Program-made: the position numbers and the translations under genes
The notes under the pieces: model-generated
What the model saw: the letters and a program-made list of their open reading frames with translations, nothing else
The model's database searches: none
What the model was told of the DNA's origin: nothing
Shown: positions 15,950 to 61,394 of the stretch, piece by piece
Numbering within the stretch: position 1 is the first letter of the stretch
Layout of the letters: each line of letters begins with the position of its first letter
Origin: an uncultured Anaerolineales bacterium
Lineage (GTDB): Bacteria > Chloroflexota > Anaerolineae > B4-G1
Assembly (NCBI GenBank): GCA_964474655.1
Contig: CAYYTU010000008.1
Span: forward strand, 10,732 to 74,731
Direction of reading: 5' to 3'
Length of the DNA: 64,000 bases

Positions 15950-16110
15950 AATATCCTCCTATTTGTTGCCTGCTCCCCACTAGTTGGCCGGTCCAATGAG
16001 GCTGGACGTACCGGCTTTACAAGTTCTGCGATTAAATCCTCCATCCATGTTTAGTTTACTTCAACAAGCCAAAATTGCAAGAGCTGCCCCCCCCTTTCCG
16101 GTACGTAGGC

Positions 16111-16138
16111 TTGACATCAGCGGTCAGGCGTCTAAAAT
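16111..16138 (+). promoter_or_regulatory. sigma70-type promoter of the M20-psuG operon
   Basis: TTGACA-N16-TAAAAT, ending 10 nt before ATG 16149. Confidence 0.6.
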
Positions 16139-16148
16139 ACGGCCTGAT

Positions 16149-17342
16149 ATGGTTAACTTTGTACTAAGCGATCAGAAGCGAGCTGATCTGACAGCTTTTT
16201 TGCGTGATTTGGTGCGCATCCCCAGCCCCTCGACCGAGGAGGCCGCCGTGGCAGATCGCATTGGTGAGGAGATGAATCGCCTGGGCTTCCACGAGGTATG
16301 GGTGGATCGCATCGGCAACGTGGTGGGCAGAATCGGGCCGGGACATGGCCCGATTCTGATGCTTAACGCTCATATGGATACGGTCCGAGTGAGCGACCCC
16401 GAAGCTTGGTCTCATGACCCGTTGGGAGCGGAGCTAGAGGACGGCGTGCTTTATGGCCTGGGCGCGGCCGATATGAAAGCCGGCCTGGCCGCGATGGTCT
16501 ACGGCGCCGATCTTCTGCTTGATGCTGACGTGGATCTGGGCGGCGATCTCGTGGTGGCCTGCGTGGTGCAGGAAGAGCAGTGCGAAGGCCTGGGGACCGG
16601 TGTCTTGATTGAGGAGGAAGGCGTGCGGCCGGATTGGGTCGTGCTGGGAGAGCCGAGCGGCTTGAGCGTCAGCCGGGGCCAGCGTGGGCGGTTGGAGATG
16701 GATCTGGTCGCCCACGGGCAATCGGCGCACGCCGCCAACCCCAGCCTGGGCGAAAACGCCATCTATATCGCCGCCCGGCTCGTCTTTGGGCTGGAGCTGC
16801 TGGCTGGACAGCTGGAGGTGGATGACTTCCTCGGAAAGGGCACGCTGGCCGTGACCGATATCTCCTCCAGTGCCGTCAGCCGCAACGCTGTGCCCGATCG
16901 CTGCACGTTGATTATCGATCGACGGCTGACGTTGGGGGAGAACGAGACGAAGGCTCTGGCAGAAATACAGCGCGTCATAGGGCGTGAAGGCGTGGAGGCA
17001 GACGTGGGGGTGACCGAGTATCAAGCCACCAGCTACACCGGCTACCAGTGTCGCGCTCGTGAGTTCTATCCGGCATGGGTGATGGCGGAGGATCACCCCT
17101 TGGTCAAAGCGATGGTAGAGGCTGCTCATCCTCAATTGGGCTATCGCCCTTCGGTTGGCCGTTGGGGATTTTCCACCGAGGGAGTCTATACGGCCGGTGT
17201 GGCCGGTATTCCCACCGTGGGCTTCGGGCCAGGGGCGGAAGAAGAAGCCCACACCGCCGACGAGCACGTGCGGCTCGATGAGGTCCACGTCGCGGCCGAG
17301 ATCTATGCGAATCTGGCGGCCAATTTACTGGCGGATGAGTGA
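16149..17342 (+). CDS. M20 family hydrolase, YgeY (selenium metabolism-linked)-like
   Basis: DRIGNVVGRIG, NAHMDTV, GAADMKAG, VVQEE, GQRGR, WGFSTEG, AHTADE. Start moved to ATG 16149. Confidence 0.8.
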   Translation: MVNFVLSDQKRADLTAFLRDLVRIPSPSTEEAAVADRIGEEMNRLGFHEVWVDRIGNVVGRIGPGHGPILMLNAHMDTVRVSDPEAWSHDPLGAELEDGVLYGLGAADMKAGLAAMVYGADLLLDADVDLGGDLVVACVVQEEQCEGLGTGVLIEEEGVRPDWVVLGEPSGLSVSRGQRGRLEMDLVAHGQSAHAANPSLGENAIYIAARLVFGLELLAGQLEVDDFLGKGTLAVTDISSSAVSRNAVPDRCTLIIDRRLTLGENETKALAEIQRVIGREGVEADVGVTEYQATSYTGYQCRAREFYPAWVMAEDHPLVKAMVEAAHPQLGYRPSVGRWGFSTEGVYTAGVAGIPTVGFGPGAEEEAHTADEHVRLDEVHVAAEIYANLAANLLADE

Positions 17343-33293: not shown

Positions 33294-34706
33294 ATGAACC
33301 ATAATCACGTGGACAGACTTCGTCGGTTGCCCAGCGTGGATCGCTTGCTGGCCCGCGACGGGGTGAGCGCTTTGATTGAGAGCTTCGGCCGCCGACGGGC
33401 GGTGGACGCGCTGCGAAGGGCGCTGGATGGCGTGCGGAACGAGGTGCTCGCCGGCGCGGATGTGCCCGATGAGGCGGATATTGTGGCCCGTGCTGATACT
33501 TACCTGCGGGAGCAGCTGAGCCCCACACTGCGACCGGTGATCAACGCCACCGGCGTTATCATCCACACTAATCTGGGACGGGCGCCGCTCTCCGAGGCCG
33601 CACGGACGGCGATGGAAGCCGTCAGCCGCAGCTATGCTACGCTGGAGTACGACCTGGAGCTCGGCGGGCGTGGGCACCGCACCGTCCACGCCGAGCGACT
33701 GCTGTGCGAGCTCACAGGGGCCGAGTCTGCGCTGGTGGTCAATAACAACGCCGGGGCAGTGCTCCTGGCGCTGACGGGTCTGGCGCAAGGGCGCGGCGTC
33801 GTCATCTCGCGCGGGCAGCTGGTGGAGATCGGAGGAGGCTTTCGGGTGCCGGACGTGATGGCACAGAGCGGCGCCCACCTGATCGAGGTTGGCACCACCA
33901 ACCGTACCCATCGCTATGATTACGATCAGGCGTTGGAGGCGCCGGAGGCGGACGTGGCGCTTATCCTGCGGGCCCATCACTCCAACTTCCGCGTGGTGGG
34001 CTTCACCTCCGAGCCGAGCCTGAGCGAGCTGGTGGCGTTGGGCGAGGAACGCGGCGTGCGCGTGATGGATGACCTGGGCAGCGGCGCGCTGCTGGAAACG
34101 CGCGATTTTGGCCTGGCGCACGAGCCAACAGTGCAGGAGAGTGTGAGGGCTGGCGCGGCTGTGGTTTGCTTCAGCGGCGACAAGCTACTGGGCGGCCCCC
34201 AGGCCGGGATCATCGTCGGGCAAGCCGACGCCGTCGAGCCGCTGAAGATCCATCCTTTGACCCGCGCACTGCGCCCCGACAAACTCTGTCTGATCGGGTT
34301 GCAAACGACATTGCTCCACTACCTGCGGGACGAGGCTGTCGCGGAGGTGCCGGTCTGGCGGATGATCGCCACGCCTTTGGAGAAAATCCAGGCGCGGGCG
34401 GAGGCGTGGCGAAAGGCGCTTCTTGAGATTGGCGCTGCGGTCGCCGTCATCGAAGGTCAGTCGACCGTCGGGGGGGGGAGCCTGCCCGGCGAGACGTTGC
34501 CTACGATGCTGGTCGCACTTGATGTGGCGGACCCGGACCAGCTGGCGGCGTCTTTGCGCGCGGCTGATCCGCCCGTCGTCGCACGCATCGTGGAGGATCA
34601 GTTGGTGCTCGATCCGCGCACGGTGTTGCCGGAGGAGGAAAAGACCCTGCTGCAAACAGTGAGGAAAAGTGTGGAAAGGATCAAGGTACAACGATCTGCA
34701 TCGTAG
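33294..34706 (+). CDS. selA: L-seryl-tRNA(Sec) selenium transferase
   Basis: N-terminal LRRLPSVDRLL, VINATGVIIHTNLGRAPL, VNNNAGA, SRGQLVEIGGGFR, EVGTTNRT, PLP lysine in FSGDKLLGGPQAG. Confidence 0.95.
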   Translation: MNHNHVDRLRRLPSVDRLLARDGVSALIESFGRRRAVDALRRALDGVRNEVLAGADVPDEADIVARADTYLREQLSPTLRPVINATGVIIHTNLGRAPLSEAARTAMEAVSRSYATLEYDLELGGRGHRTVHAERLLCELTGAESALVVNNNAGAVLLALTGLAQGRGVVISRGQLVEIGGGFRVPDVMAQSGAHLIEVGTTNRTHRYDYDQALEAPEADVALILRAHHSNFRVVGFTSEPSLSELVALGEERGVRVMDDLGSGALLETRDFGLAHEPTVQESVRAGAAVVCFSGDKLLGGPQAGIIVGQADAVEPLKIHPLTRALRPDKLCLIGLQTTLLHYLRDEAVAEVPVWRMIATPLEKIQARAEAWRKALLEIGAAVAVIEGQSTVGGGSLPGETLPTMLVALDVADPDQLAASLRAADPPVVARIVEDQLVLDPRTVLPEEEKTLLQTVRKSVERIKVQRSAS

Positions 34707-34818: not shown

Positions 34819-36042
34819 GTGAAGGAAGACCTGAATAGTTTGATGGCGGATCGTGGGCTGGACGCAATTATCGTCGCGGGGCCGGCGCACGGCAACCCGG
34901 CGATGTACTATATGACCAACGGCGCTAACCTGACGCGCGGCTATGTGATCCAGAAGCGCGACCAGGAGCCGACGCTGCTGTGTTCTCCGATCGAGCGAGA
35001 GGAGGCCGCCGCCAGCGGACTGGACGTCGTCAACCTGAACAAGTACGATTTCGTCAGCATCCTCCACGAGAAAGGTGACCGGCTGGAGGCGAGCGTCGAG
35101 CTCTACCGCCGCATCTTCGACGATCTGAACGTGAGCGGGCACGTCGGGTTCTATGGCAAGGCGGACCAGGGGCGATCCTGGGTGCTGCTCAACGCGCTGA
35201 ACGAGCAGCTGGCGGATATTGAGGTCTACGGCGACTTCGATCAATCACTCATCGAGCAAGCCCGCGCCACCAAGGACGCCGCCGAGGCGGAGCGCATCCG
35301 GGAGATGGGCCGACGGACGTGTCTCATCGTGGAGCGTACCATCGACTTCTTGCAATCACACGCCGTCGAGGACGAGACGCTGATGGAGGACGACGGCACG
35401 CCCCTGACCGTCGGGCGCGTGCACGCGGCAATCAAGCGCTTCATCGCTGAGCAAGGCCTGGAGGACCCAGAGGGATTCATCTTCGCCATCGGGCGCGACG
35501 CGGGTATTCCTCACAGCAAAGGTACCGCCGAGCACATCGTCACACTGGGTCAATCCATCGTCTTCGATATCTTTCCGTGCGAGGCCGGCGGGGGATACTT
35601 CTTCGATATGACCCGCACATTTTGCCTGGGCTATGCCCCGTCCGAGGTCGAGCAGGCCTATCAGCAAGTGCGCGAATGCGTGGCGATGCTGGTCGAGGCC
35701 TACGAGCCGGGGGCCGAGACGTGGCATTATCAGCAGTTGGCGTGCGATTTCTTCGAGGAGCGCGATCATCCCACCGTCGGCAGCGATACCACGGCCGAGC
35801 AAGGCTACGTCCACAACGTGGGCCATGGACTGGGGCTGGCAATCCACGAATCGCCGCGCTTCAGCGACACGCCCGATAATACCGACGTGCTCTCGCCGGG
35901 TCACATCTTCACCTGCGAACCGGGGCTCTACTATCCAGACCGTGGCTTCGGCGTCCGCCTGGAGGATGTGATTTGGATCGATGACGACGAAGTCGTTCAC
36001 AACCTGACCGATTTTCCGAAGGAATTAGTGATTGAGATGTAG
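34819..36042 (+). CDS. M24 (Xaa-Pro) peptidase family protein
   Basis: RATK..E, IPH, FDIFP, DMTRT, HNVGHGLGL.IHE, TCEPGLY, GVRLED. Confidence 0.9.
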   Translation: MKEDLNSLMADRGLDAIIVAGPAHGNPAMYYMTNGANLTRGYVIQKRDQEPTLLCSPIEREEAAASGLDVVNLNKYDFVSILHEKGDRLEASVELYRRIFDDLNVSGHVGFYGKADQGRSWVLLNALNEQLADIEVYGDFDQSLIEQARATKDAAEAERIREMGRRTCLIVERTIDFLQSHAVEDETLMEDDGTPLTVGRVHAAIKRFIAEQGLEDPEGFIFAIGRDAGIPHSKGTAEHIVTLGQSIVFDIFPCEAGGGYFFDMTRTFCLGYAPSEVEQAYQQVRECVAMLVEAYEPGAETWHYQQLACDFFEERDHPTVGSDTTAEQGYVHNVGHGLGLAIHESPRFSDTPDNTDVLSPGHIFTCEPGLYYPDRGFGVRLEDVIWIDDDEVVHNLTDFPKELVIEM

Positions 36043-36082: not shown

Positions 36083-37099
36083 ATGACACGTATTTTGGCG
36101 ATTGAAACATCTTGCGATGAGACCGCCGGGGCTGTGATTGAGGATGGGCGGCGGATTCTTTCCAACGTCGTCGCCTCGCAAATTGATCTGCATGCGCAGT
36201 ACGGTGGGATCTTCCCGGAGATGGCCTCCCGCGCCCACGTCGAGGCCATCGTGCCTGTGATCGAACAGACGATGGAGGAAGCACACCTTGGCTTTGACGA
36301 TCTGGATGCTGTGGCCGTGACCTATGGCCCCGGGCTGGCCGGGTCGCTGCTGGTAGGGCTCAACGCGGCCAAAGGCCTGGCGCTAGGCCGGGGCCTGCCG
36401 CTGCTTGGGATCAACCACCTGGAGGCGCACATCTATGCCCACTGGCTGGAGGTGGAGGGTGAAGGTGTGGCTCGGGGCGAGCTGACCTTCCCGCTGCTTT
36501 CGATGCTCGTCTCCGGCGGCCACACCGAGCTGACCTTGATCCACGACCATGGCGATTACGAGTACCTGGGAGGCACGCTCGACGATGCAGCCGGCGAGGC
36601 TTTCGACAAAGTGGGGCGCTTGCTGGAGCTCCCCTACCCTGGCGGCCCGGAGATCGAGAAGGCGGCGCGCCGAGGCGATCCACAGGCCTTCGATTTTCCC
36701 CGCGCCTGGCTGGATGATACCTTCGATTTCAGCTTCAGCGGGCTCAAGACCGCCGTGCTGCGCAAAGTGCAGAAGTTCAGCGATCTGCCTCGCGGCCGCC
36801 TGCTGGCCGACATGGCAGCCAGCTTCCAGGCTGCGGTGGTGGACGTGCTTTCGGCCAAGGCAGCCCGGGCGGCAGAGACCTTCGACGTGACCGCCGTGCT
36901 GCTCTCCGGCGGGGTCACGGCCAACCAGACGCTGCGCGCGATGACAGTCGAGCGAGTCTCTGTCCCGGTCTATTATCCTCCGATCTTCCTTTGCACCGAC
37001 AATGCCGCGATGGTCGGCGCTTGTGCGCATCGCCACTTTGTCAACGGCGAGCGGGACGGCTGGGACCTGGACGTGGAGACTGGGTTGCGGCTGATGTGA
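36083..37099 (+). CDS. tsaD: tRNA N6-threonylcarbamoyltransferase TsaD
   Basis: LAIETSCDET, PEMASRAH, GPGLAGSL, NHLEAH, VSGGHT, DDAAGEAFDK, FSFSGLKT, TDNAAM. Confidence 0.97.
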   Translation: MTRILAIETSCDETAGAVIEDGRRILSNVVASQIDLHAQYGGIFPEMASRAHVEAIVPVIEQTMEEAHLGFDDLDAVAVTYGPGLAGSLLVGLNAAKGLALGRGLPLLGINHLEAHIYAHWLEVEGEGVARGELTFPLLSMLVSGGHTELTLIHDHGDYEYLGGTLDDAAGEAFDKVGRLLELPYPGGPEIEKAARRGDPQAFDFPRAWLDDTFDFSFSGLKTAVLRKVQKFSDLPRGRLLADMAASFQAAVVDVLSAKAARAAETFDVTAVLLSGGVTANQTLRAMTVERVSVPVYYPPIFLCTDNAAMVGACAHRHFVNGERDGWDLDVETGLRLM

Positions 37100-39782: not shown

Positions 39783-40174
39783 TGCCCAAGTCGGACGGGC
39801 GATCGCGTCTTGGTCATTGTGCCAGGCGAGGAAAGTCCGGGCTCCACAGGGCATGGCGCTGGGTAATCCCAGGTCGGGGCGACCTGACGGAAAAGGGCCA
39901 CAGAAAAGTAGACAGCCGGGCCGGGTTCCGCCTGGCTTGGTGATGGTGAAAAGGTGGTGTAAGAGACCACCGGCGTCCGCGGTGACGCGGGCGGCCGGGT
40001 AACCCCCGCCAAGAGCAAGGCCAAGCAACGAGGGCGAGAGGTGGCCCGCCTCGTTTGAGCCCCGGGTAGGCCGCTAGAGGCGGCGGGTAACCGTCGCCCC
40101 AGATAGATGATCGCTGCCCTGTGCTGCGTAAGCGGCTCAGGGCACAGAACCCGGCTTATCGGCCGACTTGGGCA
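39783..40174 (+). ncRNA. rnpB: RNase P RNA (type A)
   Basis: P4 signatures GAGGAAAGTCCGGGCTCC and ACAGAACCCGGCTTA; AGAGCAAGGCC; terminal P1 TGCCCAAGTCGG/CCGACTTGGGCA. Confidence 0.97.
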
Positions 40175-57950: not shown

Positions 57951-57999
57951 TTGACGGAGGTAGTTTTAGGGTGTATATTATATGCAAGTTGATGCATAT
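57951..57999 (+). promoter_or_regulatory. sigma70 promoter with ArsR/SmtB-type operator palindrome
   Basis: TTGACG-N17-TATATT (57951-57979), directly followed by ATATGCA-N6-TGCATAT (57980-57999). Confidence 0.7.
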
Positions 58000-58011
58000 G
58001 AGGATTGGGTG

Positions 58012-58350
58012 ATGAGGGGAAGAGACTATATCTACGAGGACGCATCTAATTTGTTTCACTTGTTATCACATGAGCCGCGGCTACGTATCTTGGACGAGCT
58101 GCGGCGCGGTGAAGCTTGTGTCTGTCACCTCCAGTCTGTGCTTGATCGGCCTCAGGCTTACGTCTCGCAGCAGCTGCGGGTGCTACGAGAGGCCGGGGTG
58201 GTGGATGATAACAGGGATGGTGTTTTTGTCTACTATCACTTGATCGATCAGCGGGTGGAACGGCTTTTGGAGGAGGTCTTGGGCCCCGCGCGAGAGCGCA
58301 CAGTGTCGGAGACTTGTTCATGTCCTCATTGCAATTCTGAGTCCAGGTGA
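58012..58350 (+). CDS. ArsR/SmtB family metalloregulator
   Basis: LSHEPRLRIL, EACVCHL, QAYVSQQLRVLREAGVV, C-terminal CSCPHC. Start moved to ATG 58012 because ATG 57982 lies in the operator. Confidence 0.9.
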   Translation: MRGRDYIYEDASNLFHLLSHEPRLRILDELRRGEACVCHLQSVLDRPQAYVSQQLRVLREAGVVDDNRDGVFVYYHLIDQRVERLLEEVLGPARERTVSETCSCPHCNSESR

Positions 58351-58405: not shown

Positions 58406-59335
58406 TTGCATCATCATTCAACAGCTGAGATAGAGAAACGCTTCGTCTTCTCGCTGGTGCTGACGGGGGTCATCTTTCTGGCCGAGCTGATCGGCGGCAT
58501 GCTGACGCGCAGTCTTTCACTCCTCTCCGATGCGGTGCACGTCTTTATGGATGCGTTCGCCCTGGGGTTGAGCTACGCTGCGATCCGGCTGGCGACGCTG
58601 CCCCCAGACGACCGCCATACCTACGGTTACCATCGCCTGCGCGTGTTGGCCGCCCTGGCGAACGGGGCCATGTTGCTGGTGGTCGCCTTCGAGATCTTCC
58701 GCGAGGCGATCAATCGCTTCTCTAACCCGGAACCGGTGCTGGCTGGCCCGATGCTGATCGTGGCCGTGATCGGCCTGGTGGTCAATCTGGTTGTGGCGCT
58801 GGTGCTGCGAGGACATGGTCACGATCACGATCTGACCGTCCAGAGCGCCTTCCTGCACGTGCTGGGGGACGCGTTGGCCTCGGTGGGCGTGATCGCCGCC
58901 GGCGTCGTCATTGCGCTGACGGGCTGGATGGTGATCGACCCGCTGGTCAGTGTGCTCATTGGCGTGATCATCCTGGTGGGATCGGGGAACGTGCTGCGGA
59001 AGTCGATCCACATCCTGGTCGAAGGCGTGCCGCGCGGCCAGACGACCAGCGAGGTGGCGGAAGCGATGCACGCGGTGCCGGGCGTCTCCGAGGTACACGA
59101 TCTCCACATTTGGACTGTGAGCCCCGGCTACATCTCGCTCAGCGCCCACGTGGTGCTGAACGATCAATCGCTCAGCGAGGCCCAGGGCATTATGGACGAT
59201 CTGAAAGCCGCGCTGGCCGAGCAGTTCGGCATCGAACATACGACCATCCAGTTCGAATGCCGAAGTTGTGCACAGGGTACGATTATCTGCCCGTACGAGG
59301 TGAACAGTTATGAAGAAAGCGAACATACCATCTGA
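58406..59335 (+). CDS. Cation diffusion facilitator (CzcD-like) transporter
   Basis: SLSLLSDAVHVFMD, TYGYHR, AFLHVLGDALAS, VHDLHIW, HTTIQFE. Confidence 0.95.
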   Translation: MHHHSTAEIEKRFVFSLVLTGVIFLAELIGGMLTRSLSLLSDAVHVFMDAFALGLSYAAIRLATLPPDDRHTYGYHRLRVLAALANGAMLLVVAFEIFREAINRFSNPEPVLAGPMLIVAVIGLVVNLVVALVLRGHGHDHDLTVQSAFLHVLGDALASVGVIAAGVVIALTGWMVIDPLVSVLIGVIILVGSGNVLRKSIHILVEGVPRGQTTSEVAEAMHAVPGVSEVHDLHIWTVSPGYISLSAHVVLNDQSLSEAQGIMDDLKAALAEQFGIEHTTIQFECRSCAQGTIICPYEVNSYEESEHTI

Positions 59336-59648
59336 ATGGGCGCGCGATTATATTCGCAAACGCGAGGGCGTGCTCACCATCCGCTGGTCCTGGGTCTGTA
59401 TGGGGTGATGAAACTTCTTCAAAGGGCCATCCGGTCGGATGGCGAAGCCCGACAATCCAGAGGATTACGTTCCCTTCGAGGTTGACGATCTGGTCGTTTA
59501 CGTTGCACACGATCTGCTTGCTCGGCAAGAGCCCGATGCCCAGCGGTTACGGTTTTTCATCGGCGGCTATGGTGGCTATTGGCTGGAGCTGGCCGAGCCG
59601 TGGCAGGGTGACGAAGAAATGGAGGATGTTGAGGGCGATAGAGCATAA
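59310..59648 (+). CDS. Putative small selenoprotein (112 aa) with tandem in-frame UGA codons (C-M-G-U-U)
   Basis: GAGGTG SD; ATG 59310 is in frame with ORF 59439-59648 and interrupted only by TGA TGA (59406-59411); SECIS-like hairpin follows; selA in window. Confidence 0.7.
59417..59447 (+). promoter_or_regulatory. Bacterial SECIS-like stem-loop
   Basis: GCCATCC-GGTC-GGATGGC 7-bp stem with a G-led loop 21-24 nt after the UGAs; lower CTTC/GAAG pairing. Confidence 0.65.
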
Positions 59649-59925
59649 GCGCTGACGTTGGTGGTAATAGATAGAAGTATGGACGGGGCTTTCTTATCTT
59701 GATCTGGACCGAAGCACTGGTGACGATCAGGAATTGCGCATTACCAACGGTAGATAGATCCTGAAACCAGGCGCCGCCCGGCGATAGGACCATAGGCCGC
59801 GTATTCAATGGCGATTGGAGGTGATGAAGGTCTCGCGGCGGCAGGTAGACCGTTAAGGTTATCCGGTGTGGAAGCCCCGAAGGTTTGAGAGGGAAGATGT
59901 CCGGCGGTTTTCGAGGCAGAAACTG

Positions 59926-59964
59926 CTTGAAATTACCCTTCGACGGGCTCAAGGTGATTTCAAG
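59926..59964. repeat. Hairpin containing the REP core (partial third copy)
   Basis: CTTGAAATTACC-CTTCGACGGGCTCAA-GGTGATTTCAAG; the core resembles CCCTTCGACAGGCTC of copy B. Confidence 0.55.
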
Positions 59965-60005
59965 CTAGTTGAGTCAAGAAATGTGTTGGGTAGTGAATGT
60001 ATCGA

Positions 60006-61394
60006 TCAGCCCATCCGCCGTAGAATCGACCGCGCGGCCACCAGGCCCGAGGCCGAAGCCTGCACCAACCCGCGCGTCACGCCGGCGCCGTCGCCGCAGG
60101 CGAAGAGGTTCTCCACCTCCGTCTCCATCTCCTGGCTCAGCGAGAGCCGACACGAGTAGAACTTGACCTCCACGCCGTAGAGCAACGTGTGCCGATCGGC
60201 CACCCCCGGCGCAATCTCGTCCATCGCATGCAGCATCTCCAGGATGGTGACCACGTAACGATAGGGCAGCACCAGGTTCAGATCCCCCGGCGTGGCGCTG
60301 GTCAGCGTGGGGGTGACGATGGAACGCGAGAGGCGCTTGGGCGTGGAGCGTCGTCCACTTTCCAGATCTCCCAGGCGCTGGACGATGACGCCGTCGCCTA
60401 GCAGATTGGCCAGCCGGGCGATGCTCTTGCCGTAGGCGATTGGATCATCGAAGGGCTCGGTGAAGGTTTTGCTGACCAGGATGGCGAAGTTGGTGTTGGT
60501 GGTCTTGTAGTCGGCGAAGGAGTGGCCGTTGACCGTCATCACATCGCCCGCGAACTCGGTGCTGACCTCACCGTGCGGGCACATACAGAAGGTGCGGGCG
60601 CGGTCGTCGAAGGCCCGCGAGTAGTAGATGAACTTGGATTCGTACACCAGGTCCGTGATCGGCTCCAGCACGGCGGCCGGTAACTCCACCCGTACTCCCA
60701 AATCCACCGCGTTGCGCTCCAGCGATAGCCCCAGATCCTCGGAGACACCTTTGAGCCAGGCTGCGCCCTCGCGGCCTGGCGCCACTATGACGGCTTCGGC
60801 TTTGATGTGTTGCCCCTTGACTGTCTCTACACCCGTGACCCGTCCGTCGTCCGTCAGGATGTGGGCCACCGGCGTGCGGGTGTGGATCGTGACGCCCCGC
60901 TGGAGCAGCTCATCACGCACGCTGCGCATAATTTCGGCGCAGCTCTCCGTGCCCATATGGCGGATGGGCACGGAGATGAACTGGAGCCCGGCCATAGCAG
61001 CTTGCTTCTCCAGGGATTCAATATCGTCGTTGAGGGTGCCGTAGACCGTCTCCGGTGCGCCGAAGTGGACGTAAGTCTCGTCCACCTCTCGCACCAGCTG
61101 ATTGGCCCGACGCTGACCAAGGATCTTGGCCAGGTGCCCTCCGACGGCTGTGGAAAGGGTCAGCTTGCCGTCGGAAAAGGCCCCGGCCCCACCCCAGCCG
61201 GTGAGGATGGCGCAGGGGCGGCAATGCTGGCACTCGCCGCCCGGCTCTCGCGCCGGGCAGTGACGTCGTTCGATATCCGGCCCTTTGTCCAGGATAGCCA
61301 GGCGTAGATCGGCGTTGTCGCTCAGCTCCAGGGCAGCGAATATGCCGGCCGGACCGGCGCCGACAATCAGTACATCAAATGTCTGGTTGGACAT
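60006..61394 (-). CDS. FAD-dependent oxidoreductase (uncharacterised FAD-dependent dehydrogenase family)
   Basis: VGAGPAG, GWGGAGAFSDGK, DLGVRVE, RTFCMCP, GVEVKFYS, GDGAGVTRG; CxxCxxC insert. Confidence 0.9.
   Translation of the reverse strand: MSNQTFDVLIVGAGPAGIFAALELSDNADLRLAILDKGPDIERRHCPAREPGGECQHCRPCAILTGWGGAGAFSDGKLTLSTAVGGHLAKILGQRRANQLVREVDETYVHFGAPETVYGTLNDDIESLEKQAAMAGLQFISVPIRHMGTESCAEIMRSVRDELLQRGVTIHTRTPVAHILTDDGRVTGVETVKGQHIKAEAVIVAPGREGAAWLKGVSEDLGLSLERNAVDLGVRVELPAAVLEPITDLVYESKFIYYSRAFDDRARTFCMCPHGEVSTEFAGDVMTVNGHSFADYKTTNTNFAILVSKTFTEPFDDPIAYGKSIARLANLLGDGVIVQRLGDLESGRRSTPKRLSRSIVTPTLTSATPGDLNLVLPYRYVVTILEMLHAMDEIAPGVADRHTLLYGVEVKFYSCRLSLSQEMETEVENLFACGDGAGVTRGLVQASASGLVAARSILRRMG

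Follow-up and report, generated by a model that had tools for sequence, protein, structure and literature searches.

A predicted selenoprotein gene of Anaerolineales with contiguous UGA-UGA codons and a single SECIS-like hairpin

The window analysed here is a 64,000-nt stretch of DNA from an uncultured Anaerolineales bacterium (contig CAYYTU010000008.1, positions 10,732-74,731, of assembly GCA_964474655.1). On its forward strand, positions 59310-59651 form one reading frame whose sole interruption is TGATGA at 59406-59411, and a hairpin lies just downstream of these two in-frame UGA codons. We propose that the frame is a single selenoprotein gene of the CC/Se motif family in which both cysteines of the family motif are replaced by selenocysteine (Sec) through UGA-UGA, and that the hairpin at 59426-59443 is its selenocysteine insertion sequence (SECIS). 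We estimate the probability of this reading at about three in four. The locus consists of the following elements.

59310-59651, plus strand: predicted selenoprotein gene, 112 residues and a TAA stop; member or close relative of NF041239
59406-59408, plus strand: first in-frame UGA, predicted Sec residue 33; aligns with the first Cys of the NF041239 CC motif
59409-59411, plus strand: second in-frame UGA, predicted Sec residue 34; abuts the first and corresponds to the second Cys of that motif
59412-59425, plus strand: coding spacer of 14 nt (N F F K G-) from the second UGA to the stem; length invariant in 103 loci
59426-59443, plus strand: predicted SECIS hairpin, with 5' arm 59426-59432, loop GGUC 59433-59436 and 3' arm 59437-59443

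The read-through product and the hairpin in the window

When both UGAs are read through, the predicted product of 112 residues is MKKANIPSEW...WVCMG-U-U-NFFKGPSGRMAKPDNP...GDRA, where U stands for Sec. The only curated family that it matches is NF041239, the "CC/Se motif family (seleno)protein", a hypothetical selenoprotein first predicted in Moorella thermoacetica. With both stops written as Cys, the match covers residues 8-74 of the window protein and scores 42.8 bits, a marginal pass of the 40-bit cutoff. The adjacent Cys-Cys (or Cys/Sec) motif of this family falls at the U-U position. Substitution of Ala for Cys lowers the score to 37.5 bits at the first U position (a loss of 5.3 bits), to 39.5 bits at the second (a loss of 3.3 bits) and to 34.5 bits (E = 1.6e-8) at both positions, and a change of the upstream Cys30 costs only 1 bit. 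These scores indicate that the homology to NF041239 is independent of the Cys substitution and that the adjacent Cys pair of the family corresponds to the UGA pair. No Pfam match to the 112-residue product was obtained with a Pfam copy that lacked PF28096.

A sequence-only reading of this DNA had described a 7-bp stem with a GGUC loop downstream of both UGAs, and this structure is indeed present at 59426-59443. The arms GCCATCC (59426-59432) and GGATGGC (59437-59443) form a perfect 7-bp stem that encloses the loop GGTC, and the bare hairpin has a folding energy of -11.5 kcal/mol. The distances of 24 and 21 nt given in that reading are correct when measured between the last base of each UGA and the first base of the loop and incorrect as positions of the stem start, which lies 17 and 14 nt away. 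A lower CUUC/GAAG helix had been proposed as well. The segments exist in the window (CTTC at 59414-17 and 59417-20, GAAG at 59444-47), but the helix is absent from the minimum free energy (MFE) fold and only 5 of the 72 distinct homologous sequences allow all four of its pairs. We therefore reject it as a part of the element. The 64-kb window contains 46 perfect 7-bp hairpins with loops of 3-8 nt, which corresponds to a chance of about 2% that one starts within 30 nt of a given site. The hairpin is within chance expectation in the single sequence, and it is the conservation across 103 loci that lifts it above chance.

Invariance of the UGA pair and conservation of the hairpin

A DNA set of 106 sequences (the window and 105 loci) was collected from contig look-ups, a genome scan and a metagenome scan. 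The intact motif is carried by 103 of them, among which there are 72 distinct 81-mers. The loci come from Anaerolineales, Thermoflexales, other Chloroflexota metagenome-assembled genomes, metagenomes and a more AT-rich soda-lake lineage, and protein identity among these UGA-UGA (UU) loci falls to about 28%. The sequences around the UU pair differ between clades (VCMG-UU-TFFKGPSGR, VCLD-UU-IFFEGSSGR, LVVD-UU-TAYRGPSGR, MVIN-UU-VAAEVPSGR, VIKG-UU-MVFKGPSGL and VLVG-UU-RVVKALSGR), and the UU clades other than that of the window score 20-36.5 bits against NF041239. TGATGA occupies the identical position in all 103 intact loci. Both codons are TGA in every case; TAA or TAG never occurs there, and TGC, TGT and TGG are found at neither position. 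The halves that flank the UGAs always share the same frame, with zero indels. By comparison, the true terminal stops of these genes are TGA in 44, TAG in 25 and TAA in 10 cases.

Selection on the coding parts is evident on both sides of the UGA pair. The ratio of nonsynonymous to synonymous change (pN/pS) is 0.50 in the N-terminal part (28 codons), 0.21 in the four spacer codons and 0.44 in the C-terminal part. The combination of this low pN/pS with a high pS of 0.78 in the spacer indicates that the spacer is translated and is itself free of RNA-level constraint.

Protein databases were searched with the C-terminal part by exhaustive HMMER (phmmer) against 1.84 billion representatives and by two profile searches of 5.8 billion sequences. 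All database proteins related to the gene are C-terminal fragments of 51-97 aa that begin at the hairpin-internal Met or just past the UGAs. A full-length Cys-Cys form was found neither in the phmmer search nor in the two profile searches (more than 200 database clusters), and genome and metagenome DNA scans for Cys-form homologs returned UGA-UGA forms only. The only longer protein matches, P0009 and P0031, were spurious low-complexity hits to GGYGGYW-type repeats, and a suspected paralogue upstream in loci L001 and L002 turned out not to be a paralogue. The public gene calls P0001-P0008 and P0035-P0222 are truncated C-terminal fragments that start from an internal ATG, GTG or TTG, and some of the C-terminal fragments carry a precomputed Pfam tag, PF28096. 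The UU family is thus systematically misannotated because of its double UGA. The C-terminal domain also occurs without the N-terminal part or the UGA-UGA/SECIS region, as a remnant or fusion (L028:5838-6002 and L091:1501-1641). In another locus on a 634-bp contig (L040:416-622), a one-base deletion in an A-run just past TGATGA shifts the frame and is probably an assembly error.

The hairpin is conserved as RNA. Its core, CC(A/G)UCC-GGUC-GGAUGG, is almost invariant in all clades, and the conserved part comprises the inner 6 bp (59427-59432 with 59437-59442). RNAalifold recovered this single helix and no other from 67 distinct 60-mers, and within 57 nt no second structure is conserved. In the alignment of the 7-bp stem, 95.1% of the cells are paired, and none of 500 column shuffles matched the observed pairing or covariation score. 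When the 3' partner was slid by 1-3 columns as a control, pairing fell to 26-53%. Compensatory double changes are seen at three stem pairs. The outer pair (59426-59443) is C-G in 46, G-C in 7, A-U in 1 and unpaired in 18 of the 72 sequences, and none of 10000 shuffles was as good.

Codon usage within the hairpin points in the same direction. The same base fills the four-fold degenerate third position in 71/72 sequences for TCC (Ser), in 71/72 for GGT (Gly) and in 72/72 for CGG (Arg), in comparison with a third-position entropy of 1.2-1.8 bits in the neighbouring invariant Pro and Gly codons. Consistently, pS is 0.23 in the seven hairpin codons versus 0.55-0.78 in the flanks. The third base of the stem Pro codon is A in 55 sequences, G in 12 (a G-U pair) and T in 5 (U-U) and is never C.

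Individual lineages illustrate how pairing is maintained when the sequence changes. In L021, Met is replaced by Thr (ATG to ACG) opposite CCG, and the pair becomes G-C. The hairpin of the AT-rich lineage, ACCAUCA-GGUU-UGGUGGU, contains two compensatory pairs. In L105, Ala-Leu takes the place of Gly-Pro and an 8-bp stem is still formed. The loop is altered from GGUC to GCUC in one lineage only (L029:5992-6230 and L094:839-1080, protein P0022; six contigs from two datasets), which is also the sole lineage with a broken UU frame. Here, one nucleotide has been deleted after PDNPEG, so that the AUG of UG-AUG-A and the C-terminal domain share a frame. This lineage looks like a natural Sec-independent or decaying variant. 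As an anecdotal observation, the joint change of the loop G and loss of the frame is what would be expected if the loop G matters only while the UGAs need decoding.

One element for two adjacent codons

The consensus of bacterial SECIS (bSECIS) elements specifies a loop of 3-9 nt, a stem of 4-16 bp and an MFE of at most -7.5 kcal/mol, a G at loop position 1 or 2 (usually G and then G or U) and a UGA-to-loop distance of 16-37 nt (PMC13188914). The sequence-only reading had called for bSECIS scoring, and the hairpin agrees with every published feature for both UGAs. It is a stem-loop within the open reading frame, in continuous frame and just 3' of the in-frame UGAs. The loop has 4 nt, and the 7-bp stem of the window corresponds to one of 6 bp in the 67-sequence consensus. 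The loop is GGUC; its first G is present in 72/72 sequences, and its second G and its U in 71/72 each. The spacing of 24 nt to the first UGA and 21 nt to the second is identical across the 103 loci, and the energy of -11.5 kcal/mol lies below the -7.5 kcal/mol threshold. Judged by its sequence, the hairpin is a genuine bacterial SECIS and very probably the single element for the Sec-Sec pair.

The prototypes of bacterial SECIS elements are the hairpins of Escherichia coli fdhF and Moorella thermoacetica fdhA, which are bound by SelB. Like bSECIS elements in general, the present hairpin is an intragenic stem-loop 3' of UGA with a small G-G/U loop and an upper stem of 6-8 bp, and it would be translated after use. 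It differs in that two adjacent UGAs, rather than one, are served, and in that the loop and inner stem are invariant in sequence over the whole family. Between different genes, bSECIS elements usually have little sequence in common. The fdhF-type element requires a bulged U in the 5' arm and has G-U in the loop (PMC8659212). In our hairpin, the loop G-U is present, but the perfect stem has no bulged U and stands 14 and 17 nt from the UGAs instead of 11. By analogy, the hairpin would work like the fdhF SECIS and is not of the exact fdhF type.

The protein itself also departs from catalogued selenoproteins. It resembles NF041239 as a small protein of about 100 residues whose two U positions are the two conserved Cys of the model. 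In a 2026 inventory, NF041239 has the motif CxxU with a single Sec (PMC13188914). The present loci instead have two Sec codons in 103/103 cases, as CxxUU in the window, and the upstream Cys of CxxU is missing in most UU clades. Bacterial families with two Sec residues have UxxU or UxxxxU motifs, such as the NF041115 metal-binding protein, the FmdB-family TIGR02605 and TsoB, and a September 2026 paper raises the possibility of a single downstream SECIS for both UGAs in UxxU variants of Group 4 [NiFeSe] hydrogenases (PMC13582414). These proteins share with ours two closely spaced Sec codons, and many of them are metal- or metalloid-linked. However, their Sec codons are 9-15 nt apart, and the codons studied here are contiguous, which would require two insertions in consecutive elongation cycles. 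None of the 119 prokaryotic selenoprotein families and subfamilies in the 2026 inventory is listed with an adjacent UU motif, the multi-Sec proteins there having UxxU, UxxxxU or separate sites, and a literature search for tandem or adjacent Sec codons found no precedent. In eukaryotic multi-Sec selenoproteins, such as SelL with its UxxU diselenide and SELENOP, two or more UGAs share a SECIS for their recoding. The eukaryotic element lies in the 3' untranslated region and acts at a distance via SBP2 and eEFSec, in contrast to the bacterial element, which has to be close to each UGA and at a set spacing. Both the eukaryotic multi-Sec proteins and the UU protein could contain a diselenide or multi-selenolate centre.

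How could one hairpin serve two codons? While the first UGA occupies the A site, the hairpin would lie immediately beyond the mRNA entry channel, its stem base 17 nt and its loop 24 nt downstream of this codon. The G/U of the loop would tether SelB-GTP-Sec-tRNA(Sec), and Sec would be inserted in competition with release factor 2 (RF2). Translocation by 3 nt would leave the hairpin intact, now with its stem base 14 nt and its loop 21 nt past the second UGA, so that the same hairpin could recruit a second SelB ternary complex for insertion of the second Sec. The ribosome would next melt the hairpin and read it as G-P-S-G-R-M-A. The resulting protein, of about 12 kDa, would contain two vicinal Sec residues (C-x-x-U-U in the subclade of the window) and would be expressed from an ArsR-regulated operon with a cation diffusion facilitator (CDF) exporter. 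The suggestion of the sequence-only reading that one element could recode two consecutive codons is supported in that the hairpin is the sole conserved RNA structure 3' of the invariant UGA pair; Sec incorporation at each codon, SelB binding, re-use of the hairpin and the function of the protein are what we infer. The support consists of the continuity of the gene, the invariance of the UGAs, RNA-level constraint and covariation confined to one hairpin, the fit to bSECIS and the presence of selA in the window.

Several points weigh against this interpretation. The folding energy is unremarkable at 60% GC, with a z-score of -0.36 for the 61-nt region relative to dinucleotide shuffles, and Rfam reported no relevant family on the hairpin in gathering or permissive mode. 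The outer pair is unpaired in 17 of the 67 sequences, a U-U mismatch occurs in 5, and most inner pairs are nearly invariant and thus uninformative for covariation. The encoded P-S-G-R-M is conserved as protein too, so the conservation could be partly at the protein level. Among the 20 window open reading frames scanned, selB and selD were not found, and no tRNA genes, including selC for tRNA(Sec), were detected in the 64-kb window or in 25 related loci. A system of the tRNA(ReC) type could also insert Cys at either UGA or at both (PMC13582414). Moreover, the E. coli fdhF SECIS is sensitive to spacing, with its minimal element 11 nt from the UGA (PMC8659212), and two codons 3 nt apart would need more spacing tolerance than this element shows. 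A SelB structure paper reports that the loop G is usually about 20 nt from the UGA and that the hinge between winged-helix domains 2 and 3 (WHD2-WHD3) accommodates differing distances (PMC4605307). This hinge flexibility makes it mechanically plausible that one hairpin serves codons 3 nt apart.

The spacing argument leads to an alternative in which the hairpin is a true SECIS for only one UGA, most plausibly the second, whose spacing is nearer the E. coli optimum. The other UGA would then be decoded by near-cognate or SECIS-independent read-through or as Cys by a tRNA(ReC)-like tRNA, giving a U-C, C-U or U-W protein. The existence of only one hairpin is compatible with this view, as are the spacing dependence in E. 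coli (PMC8659212) and the possible Cys decoding of one or both UGAs in tRNA(ReC) genomes (PMC13582414). Nevertheless, we consider it unlikely because both distances are well within the 16-37 nt bSECIS range and because the complete absence of TGC, TGT and TGG from either codon in 103 loci is hard to explain if Cys or Trp were intended.

It is very improbable that TGATGA is a real double stop, which would separate a peptide of 32 residues from a second protein of about 69 residues that begins at the ATG at 59439, with the hairpin as a regulatory or coupling element or a reflection of a protein motif. Gene callers do annotate only the C-terminal open reading frame in every database, and this ATG is conserved in 69/72 sequences. 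However, it is buried in the stem without a Shine-Dalgarno sequence and is swapped for ACG or GTG in some intact genes (L021, L036 and L030). The nine codons from the UGAs to the ATG contain no indel, stop or frame change in any of the 103 loci, both parts always share a frame, and the four spacer codons evolve with the pN/pS of 0.21 noted above. In addition, TAA and TAG never replace the UGAs, whereas the real terminal stops vary, and the match to a curated selenoprotein family is obtained with the entire read-through protein and takes in its part before the UGAs. That the nucleotide conservation is merely a by-product of selection on G-P-S-G-R-M, with a stem-loop devoid of RNA function, has likewise very little to commend it: at the protein level, there is no variation at S41, G42 and P47 and hardly any at P40 and R43, but the third positions of TCC, GGT and CGG are frozen while those of nearby invariant Pro and Gly codons vary freely, the mispairing CCC is never used for P40, nonsynonymous changes keep the pairing (ATG to ACG with CCG in L021; GCx to GGC with GGG to GGC), and the Ala-Leu substitution in L105 still gives a stem of 8 bp.

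The extension of a single SECIS for two Sec codons to the family is somewhat less secure, yet we consider it probable that the whole clade obligatorily carries a vicinal Sec-Sec pair encoded by UGA-UGA, that one SECIS is used twice in consecutive cycles and that no Cys-Cys equivalent has been retained in the clade. The family and the recoding mechanism were already known; what appears to be new is the contiguous UGA-UGA with a single hairpin, apparently obligatory over a broad clade.

Selenium genes, neighbourhood and implications

The surroundings of the gene contain the following features.

33294-34706, plus strand: selA, L-seryl-tRNA(Sec) selenium transferase (TIGR00474, 554 bits, cutoff 267.9)
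15984-17342, plus strand: YgeY-family selenium-metabolism-linked hydrolase (NF009555, 442 bits)
57982-58350, plus strand: ArsR/SmtB-family metalloregulator, first gene of an apparent arsR-CDF-selenoprotein operon (NF033788, 84.4 bits, cutoff 55)
58406-59335, plus strand: CDF-family cation efflux transporter, ZitB-like (TIGR01297, 283.5 bits)

The presence of selA and the YgeY hydrolase in the window indicates that the organism uses selenocysteine, and SelA, as a trans-acting factor, points to synthesis of Sec-tRNA(Sec). selA lies about 25 kb upstream of the UGA-UGA hairpin, beside open reading frames for a PepQ-like peptidase (34819-36042) and TsaD (36083-37099). The YgeY gene suggests a second selenium-related locus, possibly for maturation of a selenium-dependent molybdenum hydroxylase. 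No convincing further selenoprotein gene was found in the window for comparison of SECIS elements. Elsewhere in the window, a bacterial class A RNase P RNA is located at 39787-40174 on the plus strand (RF00010, 247.8 bits).

The selenoprotein gene starts within the upstream CDF gene, with an overlap of 26 nt at the 3' end of the latter, and the two genes are probably translationally coupled. The CDF gene is directly upstream in 20 of the 28 loci of the VCMG-UU subclade with enough upstream DNA. A sigma-70-like promoter match at 57951-57979 on the plus strand (TTGACG, a 17-nt spacer and TATATT) ends 3 nt before the annotated ArsR ATG, and this position suggests a leaderless ArsR transcript or a start codon further downstream. 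Downstream of the selenoprotein gene, a gap of about 350 nt without open reading frames (59652-60005) precedes a convergent FAD-dependent oxidoreductase gene (60006-61394, minus strand); a simple scan of the gap revealed no terminator-like site. Related loci have an ABC transporter pair downstream of the UU gene instead of the oxidoreductase.

The linkage to CDF is confined to the VCMG-UU subclade. In other clades, an ArsP-type (ArsP_1) or TauE permease is often near the UU gene, as are a Thioredoxin_3 protein and a radical-SAM/SPASM enzyme, and ArsR-type HTH_5 genes occur near UU loci of other clades too. UU genes of other clades adjoin a "putative Fe-S cluster" protein of about 180 aa with PF04060 (L013:5255-5806, L015:5254-5850, L036:5239-5775 and L038:2776-3342). 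The two predicted Sec residues are the only universally invariant potential ligands of the protein, and the upstream Cys is limited to some clades. Given the ArsR, transporter, thioredoxin-like and Fe-S neighbours, our best guess for the role of the UU protein is that of a ligand for soft metals or metalloids or of a redox centre of low, perhaps very low, potential. The AlphaFold model of the C-terminal 78 residues is of mediocre confidence (predicted local distance difference test score, pLDDT, of 68) and contains four strands and a short helix. A PDB sequence search with the family profile gave no match, and a Foldseek search of the PDB with the C-terminal model gave none that was significant, its top hit, IscA (E = 1.5, TM score 0.32), not being evidence of a relationship.

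Sec insertion in bacteria is usually described as requiring one SECIS per UGA at a near-fixed distance and as a poor competitor of RF2. If the proposed double use of one SECIS is true, SelB delivery is repeatable on one mRNA element at successive codons, which implies rapid re-loading of SelB on the same RNA and tolerance of a 3-nt shift in spacing. The locus would then provide a natural measure of spacing tolerance (21 versus 24 nt), would allow direct tests of SelB recycling and processivity on a short element (about 40 nt) and might serve as an engineering cassette for proteins with adjacent selenocysteines. For annotation, the consequence is that all public gene calls for the UU family represent C-terminal fragments only. 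For the family itself, the selenium centre would be a vicinal diselenide or a bis-selenolate metal site, and the absence of a Cys-Cys version among more than 200 database clusters suggests a function beyond the reach of sulfur.

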